From Octopus vulgaris (lineage: Eukaryota): a stretch of 64,000 nt of DNA. Shown here piece by piece: positions 35,790 through 62,173 of this stretch. The notes below the pieces were generated by a model, which searched no databases, was not told the origin of the DNA, and saw nothing but the letters and a program-made list of their open reading frames with translations. The stretch covers positions 206,522,001 to 206,586,000 of the forward strand of contig OX597814.1 of NCBI GenBank assembly GCA_951406725.2, written 5' to 3'. Position 1 is the stretch's first letter. Each line of letters begins with the position of its first letter. A program made the position numbers and the translations under genes.

Positions 35790-36640
35790 GGATCTTTTCC
35801 TTTTGATAGCCAGTTTTCAACACAATTTCTAGTTAACTAAACAATTTGAAACTTCGTATACTGGTAGAATGTGTCAAAAGAAAACATTATTTTCACTTGG
35901 GTTTTTTGATAAATTTGTAATTTGTAAGTTTAACGTAGTTTAATTCTTCGAATTTTAACCAATGAATCGCCAGTATTTGAGCTGTGGTAATGTCGCCAAC
36001 AAAACTCCTGAAGATATGTTGAAAATAGAGCATCAGAAATTCCGTGCCTGTTGCAGTATTTGTTTTTGATAAATGAACTGAAGCGTCGTTTGGGTCTACG
36101 AAATTGAAACTGCGATTGACTGTAGAATGGTTTTGGAGCTGGTTGTAAGCTTGCCAACCTAGTTCCTGGAAGGACATGGCTATCAATTATGGGTAGCAAT
36201 GTGGCATCACTTCTGTCTGGTACAGGAACTAAAATACATCTCAGACTGTGGTATTCAACCATTCCTACAACCCAGTGACCAATCCAATATTGGCCATTGT
36301 AGTACTTCCTGTGCATAAATTTGGATTCATCAATCTCCACCACAACCCCTCCAATATGCATGAGATTTTTAATGCACCTCATGGCACAGATATCTTGAAA
36401 GTAATTGTACCAGTTTACTATGGCTTCACTAGACATCTTAACCTGTCACATAACAGTACACTGCTTGCAATCAATTTCAGCCCACCTGTACATCAATTTT
36501 GTAAGACGATTTAGTGATAGATGGGAACCAGAGAAAAAGGACTCCCGACTAATACACCGAAACCATTTGCATACAGAACACTTTCACATCTTCCCTTCAG
36601 AGACTTGACACTGCTTTACCAAGACCATAGCTTGGTTATA
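35790..36640 (-). mobile_element. Merlin (IS1016/ISXO2-like) DNA transposon: decayed transposase and one TIR
   Basis: C..C...ISRESFFSGSHLS, WYNYFQDIC, VVEIDESKF, WVVGMVE, VPDRSDATLLPII..HVLPGT, NHS.....NFVDP and YLQEFCWR; TIR GGATCTTTTCCTTTTGA at 35790 just 3' of the ORF. Confidence 0.85.
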
Positions 36641-42169: not shown

Positions 42170-45100
42170 CTAGCAGAGATACCTGGCATTGCTCAAGATT
42201 ATAATGGCATAGTTTGTACATATATATTGCAGTTATGTTGAAACAGGTGATGTGGGAAAGTGAAGCATTGACCATGAAGCATTTGTGGAGTAGATGTTAA
42301 AGCTTTGCACAAATGACAAGAATATATGCACAGATGACAAGAAAGGTCACCGATTTGAACAGAATTATCATTTTTATAAGAATGCGATGGATCATATCTG
42401 AAAGAAGCTCCAGGTGTTGTGAAGAACGAATTTGTATGTGACCTGATTCTGAGAGCTATTCTATTGAACCTCTGTGTAATCTGGTGAGCTAAACGTTTTA
42501 ATGATTCAGCATTAAGTGCTGCAGCTGCATGCCTTTGCTGATCTTCAGAAAGTCTCATCTCCTTTCTGTCTTGAGACTCCATCTGATGTCCAGCAGAATG
42601 CCTTTGTTGATCTTGGGAAAGTCTCATCTCCTTTCTGTCTTGAGACTCCATCTGATGTCCAGCAGAATGCCTTTGCTGATCTTCAGAAAGTCTCATCTCC
42701 TTTCTGTCTTGAGACTCCATCTGATGTCCAGCAGAATGCCTTTGTTGATCTTGGGAAAGTCTCATCTCCTTTCTGTCTTGAGACTCCATCTGATGTCCAG
42801 CAGAATGCCTTTGCTGATCTTCAGAAAGTCTCATCTCCTTTCTGTCTTGAGACTCCATCTGATGTCCAGCAGAATGCCTTCGTGTCTGAAAGTCTTCAGA
42901 TCTCTGATCAGAAAGTCTCATCTCCTTTCTGTCTTGAGACTCCATCTGATGTCCAGCAGAATGCCTTTGTTGATCTTGGGAAAGTCTCCTTTCTGTCTTG
43001 AGACTCCATCTGATCTCCTTTCTGTCTTGAGACTCCATCTGATGTCCAGCAGAATGCCTTTGTTGATCTTCAGAAAGTCTCATCTCCTTTCTGTCTTGAG
43101 ACTCCATCTGATGTCCAGCAGAATGCCTTTGCTGATCTTCAGAAAGTCTCATCTCCTTTCTGTCTTGAGACTCCATCTGATGTCCAGCAGAATGCCTTTG
43201 CTGATCTTCAGAAAGTCTCATCTCCTTTCTGTCTTGAGACTCCATCTGATGTCCAGCAGAATGCCTTTGCTGATCTTCAGAAAGTCTCATCTCCTTTCTG
43301 TCTTGAGACTCCATCTGATGTCCAGCAGAATGCCTTTGCTGATCTTCAGAAAGTCTCATCTCCTTTCTGTCTTGAGACTCCATCTGATGTCCAGCAGAAT
43401 GCCTTTGCTGATCTTCAGAAAGTCTCATCTCCTTTCTGTCTTGAGACTCCATCTGATGTCCAGCAGAATGCCTTCGCTGATCTTCAGAAAGTCTCATCTC
43501 CTTTCTGTCTTGAGACTCCATCTGATGTCCAGCAGAATGCCTTTGTTAATCTTCAGAAAGTCTCATCTCCTTTCTGTCTTGAGACTCCATCTGATGTCCA
43601 GCAGAATGCCTTTGCTGATCTTCAGAAAGTCTCATCTCCTTTCTGTCTTGAGACTCCATCTGATGTCCAGCAGAATGCCTTTGCTGATCTTCAGAAAGTC
43701 TCATCTCCTTTCTGTCTTGAGACTCCATCTGATGTCCAGCAGAATGCCTTTGTTGATCTTCATAAAGTCTCATCTCCTTTCTGTCTTGAGACTCCATCTG
43801 ATGTCCAGCAGAATGCCTTTGCTGATCTTCAGAAAGTCTCATCTCCTTTCTGTCTTGAGACTCCATCTGATGTCCAGCAGAATGCCTTTGTTGATCTTGG
43901 GAAAGTCTCATCTCCTTTCTGTCTTGAGACTCCATCTGATGTCCAGCAGAATGCCTTTGTTGATCTTCAGAAAGTCTCATCTCCTTTCTGTCTTGAGACT
44001 CCATCTGATGTCCAGCAGAATGCCTTTGTTGATCTTCAGAAAGTCTCATCTCCTTTCTGTCTTGAGACTCCATCTGATGTCCAGCAGAATGCCTTTGTTG
44101 ATCTTGGGAAAGTCTCATCTCCTTTCTGTCTTGAGACTCCATCTGATGTCCAGCAGAATGCCTTTGTTGATCTTGGGAAAGTCTCATCTCCTTTCTGTCT
44201 TGAGACTCCATCTGATGTCCAGCAGAATGCCTTTGTTGATCTTCAGAAAGTCTCATCTCCTTTCTGTCTTGAGACTCCATCTGATGTCCAGCAGAATGCC
44301 TTTGTTGATCTTCAGAAAGTCTCATCTCCTTTCTGTCTTGAGACTCCATCTGATGTCCAGCAGAATGCCTTTGTTGATCTTCAGAAAGTCTCATCTCCTT
44401 TCTGTCTTGAGACTCCATCTGATGTCCAGCAGAATGCCTTTGCTGATCTTCAGAAAGTCTCATCTCCTTTCTGTCTTGAGACTCCATCTGATGTCCAGCA
44501 GAATGCCTTTGTTGATCTTGGGAAAGTCTCATCTCCTTTCTGTCTTGAGACTCCATCTGATGTCCAGCAGAATGCCTTTGTTGATCTTCAGAAAGTCTCA
44601 TCTCCTTTCTGTCTTGAGACTCCATCTGATGTCCAGCAGAATGCCTTTGTTGATCTTCAGAAAGTCTCATCTCCTTTCTGTCTTGAGACTCCATCTGATG
44701 TCCAGCAGAATGCCTTTGTTGATCTTCAGAAAGTCTCATCTCCTTTCTGTCTTGAGACTCCATCTGATGTCCAGCAGAATGCCTTTGCTGATCTTCAGAA
44801 AGTCTCATCTCCTTTCTGTCTTGAGACTCCATCTGATGTCCAGCAGAATGCCTTTGTTGATCTTGGGAAAGTCTCATCTCCTTTCTGTCTTGAGACTCCA
44901 TCTGATGTCCAGCAGAATGCCTTTGCTGATCTTCAGAAAGTCTCATCTCCTTTCTGTCTTGAGACTCCATCTGATGTCCAGCAGAATGCCTTTGTTGATC
45001 TTGGGAAAGTCTCATCTCCTTTCTGTCTTGAGACTCCATCTGATGTCCAGCAGAATGCCTTTGCTGATCTTCAGAAAGTCTCATCTCCTTTCTGTCTTGA

Positions 45101-47249
45101 GACTCCATCTGATGTCCAGCAGAATGCCTTTGTTGATCTTGGGAAAGTCTCATCTCCTTTCTGTCTTGAGACTCCATCTGATGTCCAGCAGAATGCCTTT
45201 GTTGATCTTCAGAAAGTCTCATCTCCTTTCTGTCTTGAGACTCCATCTGATGTCCAGCAGAATGCCTTTGCTGATCTTCAGAAAGTCTCATCTCCTTTCT
45301 GTCTTGAGACTCCATCTGATGTCCAGCAGAATGCCTTTGTTGATCTTGGGAAAGTCTCATCTCCTTTCTGTCTTGAGACTCCATCTGATGTCCAGCAGAA
45401 TGCCTTTGTTGATCTTGGGAAAGTCTCATCTCCTTTCTGTCTTGAGACTCCATCTGATGTCCAGCAGAATGCCTTTGTTGATCTTGGGAAAGTCTCATCT
45501 CCTTTCTGTCTTGAGACTCCATCTGATGTCCAGCAGAATGCCTTTGTTGATCTTCAGAAAGTCTCATCTCCTTTCTGTCTTGAGACTCCATCTGATGTCC
45601 AGCAGAATGCCTTTGTTGATCTTCAGAAAGTCTCATCTCCTTTTGTCTTGAGACTCCATCTGATGTCCAGCAGAATGCCTTTGTTAATCTTCAGAAAGTC
45701 TCATCTCCTTTCTGTCTTGAGACTCCATCTGATGTCCAGCAGAATGCCTTTGCTGATCTTCAGAAAGTCTCATCTCCTATCTGTCTTGAGACTCCATCTG
45801 ATGTCCAGCAGAATGCCTTTGTTGATCTTGGGAAAGTCTCATCTCCTTTCTGTCTTGAGACTCCATCTGATGTCCAGCAGAATGCCTTTGTTGATCTTGG
45901 GAAAGTCTCATCTCCTTTCTGTCTTGAGACTCCATCTGATGTCCAGCAGAATGCCTTTGTTGATCTTCAGAAAGTCTCATCTCCTTTCTGTCTTGAGACT
46001 CCATCTGATGTCCAGCAGAATGCCTTTGTTGATCTTCAGAAAGTCTCATCTCCTTTCTGTCTTGAGACTCCATCTGATGTCCAGCAGAATGCCTTTGCTG
46101 ATCTTCAGAAAGTCTCATCTCCTTTCTGTCTTGAGACTCCATCTGATGTCCAGCAGAATGCCTTTGTTGATCTTGGGAAAGTCTCATCTCCTTTCTGTCT
46201 TGAGACTCCATCTGATGTCCAGCAGAATGCCTTTGCTGATCTTCAGAAAGTCTCATCTCCTTTCTGTCTTGAGACTCCATCTGATGTCCAGCAGAATGCC
46301 TTTGTTGATCTTGGGAAAGTCTCATCTCCTTTCTGTCTTGAGACTCCATCTGATGTCCAGCAGAATGCCTTTGCTGATCTTCAGAAAGTCTCATCTCCTT
46401 TCTGTCTTGAGACTCCATCTGATGTCCAGCAGAATGCCTTTGCTGATCTTCAGAAAGTCTCATCTCCTTTCTGTCTTGAGACTCCATCTGATGTCCAGCA
46501 GAATGCCTTTGTTGATCTTGGGAAAGTCTCATCTCCTTTCTGTCTTGAGACTCCATCTGATGTCCAGCAGAATGCCTTTGCTGATCTTCAGAAAGTCTCA
46601 TCTCCTTTCTGTCTTGAGACTCCATCTGATGTCCAGCAGAATGCCTTTGTTGATCTTGGGAAAGTCTCATCTCCTTTCTGTCTTGAGACTCCATCTGATG
46701 TCCAGCAGAATGCCTTTGCTGATCTTCAGAAAGTCTCATCTCCTTTCTGTCTTGAGACTCCATCTGATGTCCAGCAGAATGCCTTTGTTGATCTTGGGAA
46801 AGTCTCATCTCCTTTCTGTCTTGAGACTCCATCTGATGTCCAGCAGAATGCCTTTGTTGATCTTCAGAAAGTCTCATCTCTTTTCTCTCTTGAGGTCCTA
46901 TATGATGTGTTGCAGCATGTGTTTGGTGATCTTTGGAAAGTGTCATGTCCCTTCTTCCCTCTTGAGACTCCATCCGATGTCCAGCAGCATGCCATTGCTG
47001 ATGTTCAGAAAGTCTCATCTTCTGTCTTCAGACTCCATTTGATGCGTCGCAGCATGCGTTTGGTGTTCTTTGGAAAGTGTCATGCCCCTTCTGTATTGAG
47101 ACTACATCTGACATGCTGCAGCATGCCTTTGCTAATCTTGAGAACATCTCATGTTGCTTATCTCTTGAGACACTCGCCTTCAGTTTTCTGCACTCCCCCT
47201 TGCTTTGTAGGTGTTTCTGGAGAGGTTATGTTTTTTTCTTTGGGGGCAT
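42170..47249 (-). mobile_element. Internally deleted Helitron carrying a hugely expanded STPR-like coding repeat
   Basis: ATG at 47249 (MPPKKK, then NLSRNTYKAR in another frame); 23-aa repeats; post-repeat ASFRYDPSHSY...VQIGDLS..C..CKAL typical of Helitron N-termini; 3' end ttgagcaatgccagg...CTAG|T at 42170. No Rep or helicase domain; 5' TC terminus not located. Confidence 0.8.
42527..47170 (-). repeat. 69-bp tandem array, ~63 homogeneous plus ~4 degenerate units, encoding ESQDRKEMRLS(E/Q)DQQRHSAGHQM
   Basis: Direct inspection and ORFs 42199-43521, 43546-45636 and 45777-47018; broken by TAA at ~43546 and ~45684, a 1-bp deletion at ~45642 and TAG at 45777. Confidence 0.97.
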
Positions 47250-47981
47250 ATTTTTTTTTAATATTAGAAACAAAAAATTTTGTACATAGAAAAAAAATAT
47301 ACATTAATCTCTGTTTTTGTAAGCAGTTGTATGTTTATAGTACGTCAATATGTTTTTATGCGGTGTAAATTAACCAAATACGAGCAAATTGTAAATACCC
47401 TGCATCTGCTGCAATAATTCTGAACTGTTAATTGAATGGTAGATGTGTATTTTCATATATCCTGGACATGCCACCTAATTGTTTTTTGTCAAGAGTTTCA
47501 CCTCCAGCCGTTCTCATCACATACGTATTAGGTTGTTTCACATGAAACGTCTCATTTTTAATTACTTATTATTTCAGTCATTTAAAAAATCAATTATGTA
47601 TACGTTGCATCTAATTTTGACTCTTTTTCTTTCCCAACAATATTGGTATACAAAATTTGTACCCACAGACCTTATGAAAATGATAACAACCAAACTATGT
47701 TGAGTGATTTTCTCGTATGATTACAAACTGGGTTACTCTGCCACAGAGGCTCTATGGTAAATGTTTTGTTTGCCGCAAAATGAGTAAGACAAAATACTAT
47801 GTGCTGCTTCAGTTCTTCAGAAAACAGACGCATACACATCAATAGCCATCCGAAAACATCAGAAACATTCAGACATGCCAAAAGAATAACATTTAAAAAT
47901 CTAAATCAAATGAAAGAGGATCAGGGAAAAAATGGCACAGGATATGAAATTCGACTAAATATAAGAAAACCCAACATAAAA

Positions 47982-48140
47982 TCTTCTTCTTCTTCTTCTT
48001 CTTCTTCTTCTTCTTCTTCTTCTTCTTCTTCTTCTTCTTCTTCTTCTTCTTCTTCTTCTTCTTCTTCTTCTTCTTCTTCTTCTTCTTCTTCTTCTTCTTC
48101 TTCTTCTTCTTCTTCTTCTTCTTCTTCTTCTTCTTCTTCT
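47982..48140. repeat. Perfect (TCT)53 microsatellite at the RTE truncation point
   Basis: Direct count over 159 bp. Confidence 0.95.
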
Positions 48141-50520
48141 ATTAACCTTCCTTTGATATTGCTGCACCTCTTATGTGTCCATAGCTTACACTGGGTACAT
48201 CTTAAGGAGTTTCTACCCACACCTTTTCTACAGATCAAGCAGGGCCACCTACCTGAAGGGGTGTGTGATGTGTTCACCTTCCTACTTACTAGAACTTTGG
48301 TCTTTGCTACATTGACTCTAAGGCCTTTTGATTCTAAACCTAGCTTCCACACACGAAATTTCTTCTCTAGTTCCAGTAGTGATTCTGCTACGAGGGCCAG
48401 GTCATCAGCATAGAGGAGCTCTCAGGGGCAACCCCTCTTGAATTCCTCTGTTATTGTCTGGAGGACTATGATGAATAAAAGGGGACTGAGGGCTGAACCT
48501 TGGTGGACCCCTACTTCTACCCAGAATTCTTCACTATACTCATTGCCAACCCTAACCTTACTAACAGCATCTCTGTTTAGGGCCTGTACAGCCCTTATTA
48601 ACCATTTGTCTATCTCCAGTTTCCACATCACCCACCAGATAAGGGATCGGGGGACCCTGTGAAAGGCTTTCTCCAAGTCCACAAAGGCTAAGTATAGGGG
48701 TTTATCTTTGGCTAGGTATTTCTCCTGCAGTTGTCAAACCAGGAATATGGCATCAGTGGTGCTTCTGCCTGGAACAAAACCGAACTGTATCTCATCTAAG
48801 CAGACTCTCACCCTAATGAGATGGGCTATGATCCCCTCTATCACCTTCATCACCTGATCCAGCAGTTTGATTCCTCTGTAGTTATTTCTGTCTAGAGCAT
48901 CACCTTTACCCTTGTAGCAGTAGACTATGGTGCTGCTATGCCAGTCATTGGGTATGACTCCGTTATGAACTACCTGGTTTACAATGTGGGTGACTAGGCC
49001 ATAGCCCACACCACCAGATATTTTAAGCATCTTAGCAGTGATTCCTGATCAGGTAGGGGCTTTTCCTGGCTTCATACCCTTAATTGCTTTATCTACCAAG
49101 ACACTGTCTATTGGGATATCTGGTCCCTCTACTGGGTCAACATTTGGCAGGCTTTCCTCCTCCCATTCATTCTCCATATTCAGCAGTCTCTCATAATGGC
49201 TTCTCCAAGCCTCTTTCTTTTCAGAATCACTAAAGGCAAGTGCACCATCATCCATTCGAACACATTTCTTTCCTGTGACATCACAATTTTCTCTCACACA
49301 CTCTCTTGCAATCCGAAATACTTTGGCAAACTTCTTCTTTTCCACTTCTCCCTTGGCCACGTACACCTGCCTCCCAGCCTCCCTTTTGGCTACGTGGTAC
49401 AGTTCCCTGCTACCCACATCCTTCCAGGCTTTCCAGGCCTGTTTTTTTGCTCTAATGGCTTTGTCTACCGTTCTATTCCACCACCACGTAACTCTGGGTC
49501 TGGAAGGGACTTTGCACCATCTGCAGACTTGGTCAGTGGCACTCAGCAAGCTGTCCCGTAGGAATTCCTAGCTACTTTCTATGTCCGACGTCTGAAGCTC
49601 CTCCTCCCTCTCATCAAATTTCTTGATGAGGATGTCCCTAAATCTCTGACCATGTGAAGGGTTCTTTAGCTTCCAAATCCTTCTTTTCTGGATTGGTCTG
49701 TTTCTTGGAGTCCTTCTGGCTTCAAGCTTAAAGTCACTAATGATTAGCCTATGCTGAGGGATACATTCTTCACCCAGGAGGGTCTTTGTATTTAAGAGCG
49801 ACCCTGCATCCTGCTATCTGGTGAGGATGAAGTCTATTTGGCTAGCGGAATCTCCTGACTGATAGGTTATCAGGTGGCAGTCTGGCTTCCTGAAGTTAGT
49901 GTTGCAGATTAAAAGGTTACATGCATCACAGAATTCCAGTAGCCTCGTGTACCCCAGTGAAGATTCCAGATACCTGCCTAACATGCCCATTAAAGTATCT
50001 AGCCACAAAGATGAGGTCATTTCCACTCATCTTTGAGGTAGCCTGTAGAAGGGTTTCATAAAAGTGGTCCTTCTGATCATTTGGTAACCCCGCATGTCGG
50101 GTGTAGGCAGAGATAATTGTTGCTGTGCTGTTCTGTAGGGCTAGCCTGATCTTAAGCACTCTATCGCATACCCTGACAACCTCTATGACCTTTTCCACCC
50201 ATTTCTCTTCAAGGAGTATGCCAACATCCCCTACACCATCCATGTTACCTTGCCAGAAGACCTTATACCTATGTGCCTTGCCTGTGAGGACCCTAGCTGA
50301 AGCCCCTCTCCATCTTACCTCTTGTATGCAGCATACATCAACCCATCTCCTTTCAAGCATCTCTACAATCTCACTAGATCTACCTTTCAGTGTGCCAACA
50401 CTGACAGTGCCAACTCTGAAAACTGGGAAGGTAATGTGGAGTGAGGTTTGGGGAGGAGGGATGTTATTTAGTGCCTGAAAAGAAGAGGGTTGTTGTGGTG
50501 TTCGTCTTTTAGGCATGTTT
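48141..50520 (-). mobile_element. RTE-clade LINE (APE endonuclease plus RT), 3'-truncated, decayed
   Basis: VGTVSVGTL, DVCCIQEVRW, SQIDFILTR, TWWWN, YKGKGDALDRNNYRGIKLL, QFGFVPGRSTTDAIF, DLEKAFHRVPR, GVHQGSALSPLLF, LLYADDL and GLRVNVAKTK, then a Cys-rich insert WPCLIC...CTQCKLWTHKRC. Confidence 0.92.
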
Positions 50521-52084
50521 CGTTGATCTCCCTTTCGACCTGAAAACATTCAAGCATGTTTGATTGCTGCCCTTACTGGAGGTAGGAGCTAGTGTTAACA
50601 GCGTTGTAAGCAGTTATCGTTTCTGCCAACTCCTCCTCCCGAATGGTGTTGTTCTCTATATTACCTGCACTCTCTCTTTCTCTATCTCTCTCCCTCTCTT
50701 TCTCTACCTGCCCCCCTCTCTCTATCTCTCTCCTCCTTCTCTACCTCTCTCCCTCTCTTTCTCTATCTCTCTACTGTGACAAGTGCAACCAGGTTCGGCT
50801 ATATTTCATTCCATTTTCGTTGTCTAGAAATATGCCAACAACTACCCATTTCCTTGGCCTTGGGAAGTAAATGTAAAAGCTATTTGGCTGTCTGTGCATG
50901 CTTGTTTCCTTTCTCTTTGTCTGAACCCTTCCCCGCTGGTGGTACCCGCCATTATACCTGCAAGCCCCTCTATTTGGACAAACTAGACCAGCTTTCAGCT
51001 GACACCCCGCCCCTGGAATATCCATATTTCTGCTACACCGCTTAAATCTACATCATTCAATGACCATAATGCTTATGCTTACAACGCTGCTAACAATAGC
51101 TCCTACCTCCTGTAAATTTCAACTATATATATATATCTAAATTAAATTAGAGATAAAACCACTATTATGCAAATCAAACAGTGAAAAACATAAACCAAAA
51201 CATAAAAATAAATATAATTAATATAATATACAAAATATATAAAATATAAAATTATTTAAATTTATATTTATAAATAAATTTATATTTATAAATTTTTAAT
51301 TTATATTTATAAATTTTAAATTTATATTTATAAATTTTTATATTTTTTTATATTATTTTGAAAATTTTAAATTTATATATTTTTAAACTTTTAATTTTTA
51401 AATTTATTATTATTATTTTCATTTTTATTTTTCTTAATTAATTAATTAATTTTTTATTTATTCATTTATTTTTTTATTAAAACGTATTAAAAAGTTCAAT
51501 ATGATATAATAAGTATTTACTTATTACTTATTATATTATATTAAACTTTTTAATAGCCTTTCTTAAGAAGTGAAACCATTAGACTTTTATTTTTTTCGTT
51601 TGAAGCGATCACTTCGTAAACAAATTTACGCAGATTGTAAACAAACACAAAATGGGGGTTCAAAGTTTGAAAAATTTGTGAAGCAAATACTGGGCACTGC
51701 ATGGATTTAGTTTTTATACAGGGAAAATAATGTTAGTCAGCATGGCCTAGGGAACGATGTGGTTTGAAATTTATCATTTCCATACCATAACCAGGGTCGT
51801 ATATTATTTTTTGACCTATTTCTTTAGTTCGGTCAAACTTGCAGTGGATTCCAGTAAAGAAATAAATAAATAGAAATATATATATATATATCTATGTATA
51901 GATAAATAGATAAATAAAATAAAATACAAATTAAGATGAGTACAAAGATAATCTTAATATATAAGGCTGCCAAACAAATACAGAGAGAGAGAGAGAGAGA
52001 AGAAGAGAGATAGATATAAACAGATATACATGTATTTGTATACGTATAAATACATATGTACATACATACAAATATACATACATA

Positions 52085-55480: not shown

Positions 55481-56343
55481 TAACTGGGTCCTGAACACTA
55501 CGTACTTTTCAAAAAATAGCCCTGCAAGGAACCGCCCACATCCTATGCAACATACTATCGATTCTATAATACAACCTAAACAAACTAATATACAAACACA
55601 AGACACACTCTATACAGCAATTAGCCAGTGAAACAGACTTCCACCAAACTTTACACACACATTACTTATGCGCCAAGGATGGTCATGCACTATAACATTT
55701 CACCCAGAGCTCCTGTGTAAAGAGAGAAACAGGGGGAAAATGGTGTTTTACACGAATCTCTCTAAAAGCTTCTGCAGTTTTCAACTGGTTCTCTCTCTGT
55801 TTATTTCTCTCTTCCCTCTTTTTTCTCATTCTCTGTTTCTCTTGCTTACACATATTCTCTCTCACCCTCTGTAATAGTTCCTCTCTTTTCTATGTCTTTT
55901 TCTTTCACTCTCTCTCCCTCTCTTTAACTCACTCACACACTAACTTCTGTCTACAAATTGCCTTCCATGTATTTCAATTAGTCATATGTAAAAATCTCTG
56001 TTGTTATGGTTTTTGTGCGTTCTCCCTGGAAAATAGCTTACTTATCTTTAATTTTTGTTTACCCAGTGCGTTTAAATTCAGTTTTGCCACATCTGCCAAA
56101 AATTGACTTCAGTGCATTTCAATTTTGTTGTGTGTAAATATCTTTATCTTTACAGTATTTGTACATTCTCCCTACAACATTACTTTCCTTATTTTAAGCT
56201 TTTTGAACTCTGTCTATTTAAATACACTATTCACATTTCTCCCTCTGTCAGAAAACGTTCATGTGGTCATGCAGGCACAAGTATGACTGCTATGGGCCAC
56301 ATACAGCTGAGAAGCCTTTATTACTAATTAATGAGATTTCAAC

Positions 56344-56423
56344 AGTACCACTTAGCAGTCATGCATTAGAAAAAACTCTCCTAAGTACCACTTAGCAGTC
56401 ATGCATTAGAAAAAACTCTCCTA
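56344..56423. repeat. Exact 40-bp tandem duplication
   Basis: agtaccacttagcagtcatgcattagaaaaaactctccta occurs twice. Confidence 0.95.
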
Positions 56424-56505
56424 AAGTAGCAAAAGCTATTTTCTTCTAGAGGATATATACGCTCAAATGGGGCTTGTAAGTTCTGTTTACAAATCGACTT
56501 CCTTG

Positions 56506-56939
56506 TCTATATATATAACATTCTTTGTCTGTTTATCTGTCTGTTCCCTATGCATTCTCAAACAGCTCAACCAAATCAAATCAACTTCTACAAGGTAATA
56601 GTATCAGATCCTGTGAGTGTCAGCATGTAATTTTTTTCATTTTGATAAAACAAAATAACATTGGCACTGGTTTGGTATTATGTGTCAAAAGTGAAAGAAT
56701 AACATCTATATTGTAATGTCATATGAAATTGTTATACTTGTTTTCTTTCAATTTTAATTCTACTGTGATAACTAAATGAATAATAGTGGCTGTGTGGTAA
56801 GTAGCTTGTTTACCAACATCATGGTTCCAGGTTCAGTCCCACTGCATGGCACCTTGGGCAAGTGTCTTCTACTATAGCCTCGGGCCAACCAAAGCCTTGT
56901 GAGTGGATTTGGTAGCTGGAAACTGAAAGAAGCCCGTCG

Positions 56940-56972
<33 letters not shown>

Positions 56973-57605
56973 ATGTGTGTGTTTGTGTGTCTGTGTTTGT
57001 CCCCCTAGCATTGCTTGATAACCGATGCTGGTGTGTTTATATCCCCGTTACTTAGCGGTTCGGCAAAAAGAGACCGATAGAATAAGTACTGGGCTTACAA
57101 AAGAATAATAAGTCCCGGGGTCGAGTTACTCGATTAAAGGCGGTGCTCCAGCATGGCCGCAGTCAAATGACTGAAACAAGTAATAGAGTAATGTGAACAA
57201 CATTACTCATCGGCAACTTTCCATCTTTACGGCCACCACAACAGAATGGTGTGTCAGTGTAGATGCGTTGACCAATATAATGAATGCCTGAAGGTGAAAC
57301 TCGTGACAAAAAACAATTTGATGGCAAGTCCAAGGTATGTGATAATATACGTTTACCATTCAATTACAACTTAATAATTATTGCACCAGTTGCTAGGTTA
57401 CAAGGGATTTACAATTACATATTTACCATTAAACTAATGTAGTATCAAAACAGAAGGGAGATGTGACTTTGCCAGAGAGAAGAAATGCATGTGGCTGCAC
57501 ATCAGATAGTATCTTAAGACTGAAGGGAGATGAGATTTTCTGAAGATCAGCAAAGGCATTCTGCCTGGCATCAGATGGATTCTCAAGACAGAAGGGTGAT
57601 GAATC
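56506..57605 (+). mobile_element. Decayed Helitron 5' part with ~2.5 degenerate copies of the 69-bp STPR-like unit (57440-57605)
   Basis: TCTATATATATAAC...tgtctgtttatctgtctgttccctatgc head; gagatgagattttctgaagatcagcaaaggcattctgcctggcatcagatggattctcaagacagaag matches the array unit. Linkage of head and repeats into one element is inferred. Confidence 0.55.
56785..57190 (+). mobile_element. SINE family A, near full length
   Basis: gtggctgtgtggtaag...ggttcagtcccactgc..ggcaccttgggcaagtgtc...aaatgactgaaacaagtaa. Confidence 0.9.
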
Positions 57606-58329
57606 TTTGTTCAAAGAGAAAGAAAAATTATTTTGTGAATCTTCTCAGTTTATAAAACTTTTCTGAATGTATATTTTGGAAAATTTCAAATTGTAAACTC
57701 AAAATATTTTCTTACTTCTTTTGTAAATTCACTAACTCGATAATAATTCTGTGATACCCGGGAATAAAATGATTTAATATTTTGTCTCTGTTTATATATA
57801 TATACGCATGTGTGGGTGTTTTACCAATACCATAAGTCCACATGTTTTCTCTTCAAATACTTTTCAACAGCAACAACAATAAGAGACCTAGCCTCAACCT
57901 TGATTCAATGTCAGTTGATGACCTACTTAATGAAACAGTCAGCTTTTCAGATTCCATTTGTTACCCAGCAACCAAATGTAAACAGTAGCAACAAGAATCA
58001 CCACAGCAATAACAATTACAGCTACAACAACTACATTACTGACCGTTCTACAGTACATGTGCATGTGCGAGTGTATACACACACACAGATATGCACATGT
58101 ACATGCACATATGCGTTTGTAATTACCCATATGTTTTCACCTACCACTAAAATCAAAGGAGATCAAATTTATTGCCGCTTTAGCGACCTCAGATCTTTTG
58201 AAGATGTTGAAAGCAACCTGTTGTCACTAAAGTGTCTAAAATTTGATAACTTTTCAACTTTCTACAAACACAACCAGGCTGAGATAATGCATTCTTCCAA
58301 GAGTGAATAAAAGAAATTCTGAAACTGGA

Positions 58330-61009: not shown

Positions 61010-62173
61010 TACTGTCTTTCAAAATAAGAAGTGATAAAAATTCAAAATTATAGAAATTTAAGTTTAAAGTATGAACGAGAACAAAAAGCTTCCACATGTT
61101 GATGGAATGACATCATCAGTCTTTAAGCATTTGTACTGACATAGGGGATTACTGGAAACATGCAAATGCTTTTGTACACCATTATGTCAACTGCAGTTAT
61201 AGTGAATCATCATGATTAAAGGAAATAGCAAATGAAATAGCTAAGCTTAGCAAAGATAGTCAAACCGTCATGCATAATTTTAGCAAACACAATACAATTG
61301 ATGACAGAATTCCTTTAGTGATTAACTGGCATCGAAATTTCACTGGCATTTCAAAAGTGTTGAAAGAAAGTTACCAACATGTGGCGCAAAAATATCCTCA
61401 TTTCAAACAGATATTTCTTCAGCTGCCTATTGTAACCTTTAGATAGGACAAAAATATAAGAGAATTATCGAGCTCTACTTCTGGCCCCCAAAAAACTAAC
61501 ATTGGAGTTTCTGCTGTACCTTGAAAAACAGCTGCAAGAGAGGTAAGCCCTGTTCATTGCGCAATAACATGAGTCAAGTCAGGAATCATAACAGAAATGT
61601 TATGATTTATACAGAAGATGGGACATGTAGAGATTACCATTTGGTGTTCATGGCAGAATGCACAAAACACAACTTGATTTATATTGGCTGCACAACAGAA
61701 CAATTAAACAAAAGATTTAATGGGCACAGATATGACATCAGGCACAACAACAGTAGTTCGACAGACCTTGCTGAACATTTTGCTTCAAATGGCTGCAATT
61801 TTGAAGAAGACTTGAAAGTGCATATTCTCAGAAAATATTCTGAATCTGCTTCACTTTCACTTCTCAAAATGCATGAGGAGAAATATGTTTGTGGGTTATT
61901 AACATCACGCCCTGGAGGAATGAATAAAATGACAGGAAAATTTCATCAAATTTATACAAAACTCTTTGATTAAATATTCTTTTTCCTTTCCTTTTTTCCT
62001 TACCTCTTTTTTTCTGTCTCTTTCTTTTTTGCCTGTTATAAAATTGAAGCCTGATGATGTCATTCCATCAACGTGTGGATGCTGGTTTCTCTCGTTCATA
62101 CTTCAAATTTAAATTTCTATAATTTTGAATTTTTATCACTTCTTATTTTCAACTCGACAAAGACAGCATTACT
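61005..62173 (+). mobile_element. Penelope-like element 3' part (GIY-YIG) with a 3' pLTR and an inverted 5' pLTR copy
   Basis: LVFMAECTKHNLIYIGCTTEQLNKRFNGHR...LAEHF...E.KY...L....PGGMN; 61005-61119 is the inverse of 62051-62173. Confidence 0.85.

Follow-up and report, generated by a model that had tools for sequence, protein, structure and literature searches.

A 69-bp minisatellite in Octopus vulgaris, very probably expanded in place from the STPR-coding relic of a dead non-autonomous Helitron1 copy

Tandem repeats in the centre of non-autonomous Helitrons and Helentrons, which may become satellites, are described for oyster, Drosophila and Xenopus in the accessible portions of three reports (PMC7492417, PMC12001565, PMC12628747). 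As far as those portions go, Cg_HINE of the Pacific oyster, DINE-1 of Drosophila and Heli2Xen of Xenopus are dispersed, non-autonomous elements with a short internal array (mostly ≤ 5 monomers) which is occasionally long. The STPR, a repeat with a 23-residue period, is known from FMBP-1 of Bombyx (PDB 5d23), in which the accessible text gives E1, S/T2, R9 and L10 as its residues and ATAC repeats as its binding target (PMC4856987). Among Helitron-like elements STPRs are nearly confined to Helitron1, according to the part of the HELIANO survey available, which also lists among HLE1 features a 3′ CTRR followed by the T of the A/T target, a subterminal hairpin and a 5′ TC (PMC11417382). We analysed a window of 64 kb from Octopus vulgaris (assembly GCA_951406725.2, contig OX597814.1, 206,522,001–206,586,000; all coordinates below are those of the window), in which the minus strand carries a long array of 69-bp units inside a Helitron-derived element. 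We consider it very probable that this element is a dead non-autonomous Helitron1 copy, in which the relic STPR-coding unit was expanded in place by slippage and unequal exchange into a non-coding minisatellite.

The element resembles Cg_HINE, DINE-1 and Heli2Xen in being a dispersed, non-autonomous element with an internal array, but it is set apart from them, as they appear in the sources cited above, by belonging to Helitron1 (CTAG followed by T). Its unit is a codon-phased relic of the 23-amino-acid repeat of the transposase, whereas their monomers are captured or non-coding, and each long array here has a private unit; array size reaches 68–113 units, compared with at most 29 in Cg_HINE. 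No account of satellites derived from transposase STPR units was found in the literature searched, in which subscription journals and supplements were poorly covered. Helitron-borne tandem repeats and STPRs in Helitrons have each been published, and the coding origin of the unit is a modest twist.

The array was detected as a period-69 tandem repeat by TRF at 43,009–47,152 (60.1 copies, 95% matches), with a second period-69 block at 42,522–42,880 (5.2 copies). A hidden Markov model (HMM) of the unit gave 68 matches over 42,516–47,171, in good agreement with the ~67 tandem units of an initial annotation of this DNA. The unit is repeated head to tail, is homogeneous and private to the locus and lies inside a decayed element, as is expected of a transposon-derived minisatellite. 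The 62 units past a diverged head include variants A (21 units), B (19 units), C (13 units) and D (2 units) and six singletons.

Both flanks of the array belong to a dispersed family, with 1,546, 1,629 and 2,112 first-look candidates on many contigs of the 2.8 Gb genome searched, 150 of which were scored. The 62 siblings selected by their flanks represent 41 distinct loci, and 40 of these hold 2–8 units (median 4). Sibling alignments break off sharply at CTAG, and T follows in 28 of the 30 exact 3′ ends fetched; in the array copy CTAG and this T lie at 42,173–42,169. The initial annotation had described the end as a hairpin followed by CTAG and T. The latter is confirmed by the sibling ends, but the hairpin is decayed in the array copy (predicted −1.0 kcal/mol, z + 1.0); that of the intact family version is weak (predicted −4.4, z −1.2). 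The autonomous element L089 terminates in a similar hairpin with CTAG followed by T. The array copy has no 5′ TC terminus after A; its homology ends at ~47,525 beside a 232-bp repeat, and the family's own 5′ TC end was not located in siblings followed at least 500 bp further 5′. The array copy is a truncated relic and not an intact element.

The segment following the repeats (FRYDP at 42,402 and KAL at 42,306, minus strand) had been called Helitron-type, and it does match the N-termini of autonomous RepHel proteins from the same genome (hhalign 97%, E 8e−11) and, in a profile search, the RepHel fragment P0003 (41% identity over 127 columns, E 5e−25). The absence of Rep and helicase, also reported initially, is accounted for by an internal deletion: all seven longer siblings fetched (L159–L165) run on from the post-repeat point into RepHel amino acids ~50–230, with 32–47% identity. 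Helicase C-terminal sequence was found at 3 of 30 loci sharing the family's 3′ end, as helicase fragments only. The autonomous elements L089 and L095 have an MPPKK start and STPRs above the Pfam cut-off, which agrees with the earlier statement that some Helitron N-termini carry a few such repeats. Their layout, with MPPKK start, 23-amino-acid E-[ST] repeats and F.YDP...IG...C..C, is shared with P0003, P0005 and P0020 and is that of STPR-bearing Helitron1 RepHel proteins (PF21107), a layout in which the array copy agrees with them. Because of the RepHel match, the siblings continuing into RepHel and the layout of L089 and L095, we regard the family as an internal-deletion derivative of Helitron1. 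Unlike an STPR-bearing RepHel element, the array copy has no Rep or helicase, its frame is dead and it holds 68 units rather than a handful. The available part of the HELIANO survey places STPRs among separate open reading frame (ORF) domains (PMC11417382), whereas in L089 they lie inside the RepHel ORF.

Many near-identical autonomous Helitrons were also seen, for example L089, L090 and L097, with open frames of 1,500–1,744 amino acids; such sequences suggest recent Helitron activity in this genome. L095 and L100 belong to one Helitron family but have unequal numbers of STPRs. A second and more decayed copy of the array's own family lies at 55,900–57,620 on the plus strand. It retains 5′ modules and about two units and has received an inserted repeat; the FRYDP tail was not seen in it.

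The array unit has a strict 23-residue period with E1, S/T2 and R9. The initial annotation held that it has exactly the STPR residues, and E1, S2, R9 and L10 are indeed kept, as in the FMBP-1 repeat, but R6 and R21 are lost in every unit, the amplified unit having K at position 6 and H at position 21. The family majority unit keeps E1, S2, R6, R9, L10, R16 and R21. For comparison, 15 RepHel-type proteins supplied 52 distinct units. Of these, 44 have R at position 6 and 43 have R at position 21, and neither K6 nor H21 was seen among them. The RepHel units were selected by a pattern at positions 1, 2 and 9, so that these three positions are no evidence here. The residues given as DNA contacts of FMBP-1 in the accessible text (R6, M13, S14, Y16, A17, R20 and L21; PMC4856987) correspond to K, D, Q, R, H, G and H in the array unit. 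The conserved phosphate-contacting arginines are R6 and a second one, which is R20 in FMBP-1 and R21 in Helitron units.

Five translations of the array gave no Pfam STPR (PF21107) row up to E 10 (cut-off 27 bits), while the sibling array L088 scored 61.8 bits, so the ancestry holds and the array unit has drifted out of the family model. Together with the hhalign result, the L088 score bears out the STPR and Helitron N-terminal origin that had been proposed. A PDB sequence search with the array found no match, 5d23 included, whereas an autonomous RepHel N-terminus does match 5d23 (E 2e−4). STPRs form tandem helices that zig-zag on DNA; four array units were predicted as one long helix (pLDDT 72, pTM 0.26), an uninformative model built from a 5-row alignment and without DNA, and a Foldseek search with it returned no match. 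By ancestry the array unit is an STPR.

Contrary to the initial annotation, the MPPKKK start does not lead into the array. From ATG CCC CCA AAG at 47,249 the array copy reads MPPKKKT and then a stop at codon 8, and the ancestral frame holds three further stops and a 4-nt deletion (Table 1), the size of which was taken by reading the sequence against the 69-bp unit. This gives two frameshifts and three stops in the leader. The array adds four lesions and a scrambled patch: TAG at 45,779–45,777, TAA at 45,686–45,684 and at 43,548–43,546, a 1-bp deletion near 45,643, and three scrambled units of 29, 64 and 87 bp at 43,035–42,856. The stops and the deletion are all where they were first reported, and the scrambled units come in addition.

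The reading frame of the family majority stays open from its ATG, across the units, as far as the zinc-finger lead-in, and hence the ancestor was coding. The siblings show a ratio of non-synonymous to synonymous changes (pN/pS) of 0.78–1.36, with stops in 36 of 51 leaders and 33 of 52 tails (those of the 62 siblings which passed an identity and coverage filter), and stops are roughly as frequent as synonymous changes. Among the 42 copies that have the ATG, only two keep an open leader, and one of these two does so in a shifted frame. The leader of the array copy likewise has pN/pS ~ 1, with stops. The four distinct new substitutions in the array, a small number, comprise 2 nonsense, 2 missense and 0 synonymous changes, where the expected nonsense share is 5.5%. 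The stop-amplifying sibling array L106, which carries a 138-bp dimer with TAG repeated four times, indicates that amplification ignores the frame.

Long ORFs over the array are to be expected, the 69-bp period being a multiple of three. The real unit has three open frames, two of them on the plus strand; shuffled units have a mean of 1.7 open frames of six, and three or more are open in 22% of 20,000 shuffles. Searches for database proteins, both limited by length, returned none at threshold for the tail (among longer proteins) or for the array plus tail (among proteins of similar length). A Pfam search of 25 other ORFs in the window for exons of a host gene gave transposon domains only (4 of 25), a result which leaves room for short exons. 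The ~1,600-amino-acid modular DNA-binding protein or "coding satellite" of the initial annotation is not supported: leader and array carry lesions, the unit lacks R6, R21 and a Pfam STPR match, the family decays neutrally and one sibling array has multiplied a unit with a stop. The fallback of that annotation, a non-coding satellite, fits best. Judged on sequence, the array is most likely non-coding.

Plus-strand ORFs of 1,342 amino acids (43,014–47,042) and 1,048 amino acids (42,505–45,651) run antisense to the array and could be mis-annotated by gene finders. The longer one matches LRR_5 and two other domains, but was rejected as a gene: the scores are summed over repeats and the ORF is an antisense by-product of the 69-bp period. 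More generally, a period divisible by three can yield spurious ORFs of more than 1,000 amino acids on either strand, which is a warning for annotation.

Several observations weigh against a dead Helitron1 copy with a non-coding array. An autonomous parent of the exact family was absent among 37 RepHel loci (DNA match, E 0.01). Two ATGs stand in each unit, and internal ATGs begin open stretches of 416, 714 and 448 amino acids. The tail of the array copy is stop-free with pN/pS ~ 0.5–0.7 (10 synonymous and 17 non-synonymous changes), a value which is not significant by a rough hand binomial (~ 0.1–0.2). The same segment lacks stops in 19 of 52 siblings. One stop scored in the tail alignment of the array copy does not exist in the real frame; misalignment probably produced it. 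In L088 all 28 units are clean, with R6 and mostly R21 retained, and that array passes Pfam STPR; its leader carries one stop. Net charge was rejected as a test of function, as intact RepHel units span −2 to +5, and it does not discriminate, 8 of the 52 RepHel units being as acidic as the array unit.

The open tail and the stop-free stretches would suit transcription of the array and its translation, starting at internal AUGs, into poly-STPR-like proteins of 400–700 amino acids, which would bind AT-rich DNA after domestication or as competitors of active Helitron transposases. The retained E1, S2, R9 and L10 point the same way, as do the ATAC repeats bound by STPRs in the accessible text on FMBP-1 (PMC4856987), such microsatellites being common in the window. 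However, the leader is broken and the 5′ end missing, R6 and R21 are gone from every unit, neither Pfam STPR nor PDB gives a match, none of the new mutations is synonymous, and the length-limited searches with array plus tail found no protein. We therefore think such products very improbable.

The timing of amplification is read from divergence. The two flanks of the array differ from the family majority by 10.2% and 10.4% (sibling medians 10.9% and 11.6%), and their closest non-self relatives are 81–82% identical at top rank. Between the majority sequence of the array and the family unit there are 9 differences in 69 bases, and 56 clean units differ by a mean of 1.6% from their own majority and by ~ 2% from each other. 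All 62 genome matches to a private 30-mer of the unit lie within this array. Since the flanks are ~ 10% diverged, the units ~ 2%, and the unit is private, amplification or complete turnover took place in situ, after decay. The ~ 15-fold amplification claimed earlier holds, the array having 68 units where the family median is 4.

In the order of the variants, BABA/ABAB runs number 10, a value reached by 0.15% of shuffles, and the alternation survives at both ends of the array; the middle is rich in C, which combines the left difference of A with the right difference of B. Excess identity is also present at lags 5 and 7 (p 0.005 and 0.014; 12 lags, uncorrected). From this we infer that a dimer was amplified first and that unequal exchange or conversion followed.

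In the history that these data show, an autonomous Helitron1 lost Rep and helicase by internal deletion. The derivative, which still had the start, a small number of STPR-type units, the zinc-finger lead-in and its 3′ end, spread widely. The array copy decayed to ~ 10% from the family majority, with loss of the start frame, hairpin and 5′ end, and a locally mutated unit found nowhere else forms nearly the whole array. Pre-existing near-identical direct repeats may have seeded misalignment, so that slippage and unequal exchange are the likely mechanism; a B-A dimer may have been amplified first, with later exchanges making the recombinant C and scrambling the order. Long open frames would persist only because the period divides by three.

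We consider it very improbable that an internal segment was replicated aberrantly during rolling-circle transposition and that the finished array was then inserted as such. Rolling-circle tandemisation of Helitron segments is described in the available part of one report (PMC12628747), and autonomous Helitrons with long intact ORFs exist in this genome; but the units are ~ 2% apart where the flanks are 10% decayed, neither a close sibling nor another copy of the private unit was found, the hairpin is decayed and the 5′ end missing. It would need added later homogenisation, which returns to expansion in place. That the length or the breaks of the array are largely assembly artefacts is hardly credible: the scrambled units do resemble those of L086, an array with an N gap and 35 of 113 units off-length, and a + 1 A in the leader sits in a homopolymer, but the three haplotypes stand in non-periodic order, the same TAA-bearing variant occurs in two distant units, the whole window has zero N, other arrays have private units of their own, and the leader TGA, a CpG transition present in 13 of 63 aligned rows including the array copy, is thus not a homopolymer error.

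At least five further arrays were found in the same Helitron family, with 113 (L086), 34 (L107), 28 (L088), 19 (L106) and 14 (L108) units, and the remaining 18 of the 23 loci fetched have 4–9 units. Array counts are lower bounds, 150 of 948 candidates having been scored. L107 has diverged by 20% and holds 8 stops among its 21 full-length units, and L108 has diverged by 16% and also holds stops; these two show the fate of old arrays. Homogeneous young arrays are found at this locus and on C3 and C25, and older, decayed ones on C4, C8 and C11. An unrelated Helitron family (L175–L177, G000:C30 ~ 18,776,600–18,784,500) has a 69-bp STPR array of 114.7 units; a helicase fragment comes after it, and no match to Rep was seen there. 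The growth of long arrays therefore recurs, in two unrelated Helitron families, and the birth of a satellite from a protein-coding repeat is visible at several ages in one genome.

Should any array be expressed, L088 (7,058–8,983 of its locus, G000:C25, ~ 15 kb from the contig start) would be the best candidate. It is a long shot that long codon-phased arrays arise again and again from the STPR units of dead Helitrons and that some are expressed as very long modular DNA-binding proteins. If they were, such proteins, from this array via internal AUGs or better from L088, might cover DNA rich in ATAC or act as rivals of the transposases of live Helitrons, and transposon junk would thereby have given rise to TALE-like repeat proteins; any expressed array would test STPR chaining far beyond four copies.

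Table 1 Parts of the decayed Helitron copy and its array, in window coordinates.
Feature	Position	Strand	Remarks
Truncated 5′ non-coding part, lacking a TC terminus	47,250–47,525	−	Sibling homology starts at ~47,525; siblings run at least 500 bp further 5′
Relic RepHel start (MPPKKK)	47,172–47,249	−	+1 A in run 47,237–47,231; TGA 47,182–47,180
Five diverged ancestral 23-codon units	46,830–47,171	−	TAG 47,134; TAG 47,104; 4-nt frameshifting deletion ~47,020
Homogeneous 69-bp minisatellite, ~63 units, A/B/C	42,516–46,829	−	Interrupted by three stops and a 1-bp deletion; three units are scrambled
Post-repeat RepHel N-terminal relic (FRYDP...VQIG...C..CKAL)	42,293–42,515	−	Stops at the family's internal deletion
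Helitron 3′ end	42,170–42,292	−	Decayed hairpin 42,198–42,182; CTAG 42,173–42,170, then T

The truncated 5′ end of the Helitron copy is adjoined by the 232-bp dispersed repeat (47,526–47,757), which lacks clear terminal inverted repeats. Many copies match it at ~ 91% identity, and a 461-bp query gave 781 first-look candidates. The 232-bp repeat is followed by 210 bp (47,771–47,980) with same-contig matches of 97% and 92% at C1:206,951,957 and 206,997,499, perhaps an exon or a local duplication. A decayed long interspersed nuclear element (LINE), which we take to be of RTE type, occupies 47,982–50,600 on the minus strand, with endonuclease- and reverse-transcriptase-like parts recognised by eye, and ends in a perfect (GAA)53. 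Pfam matches to integrase zinc-binding, LINE endonuclease, IS1595-like DDE and GIY-YIG domains mark other mobile-element fragments at 910–1,455, 23,075–23,830, 35,933–36,445 and 61,500–61,970.

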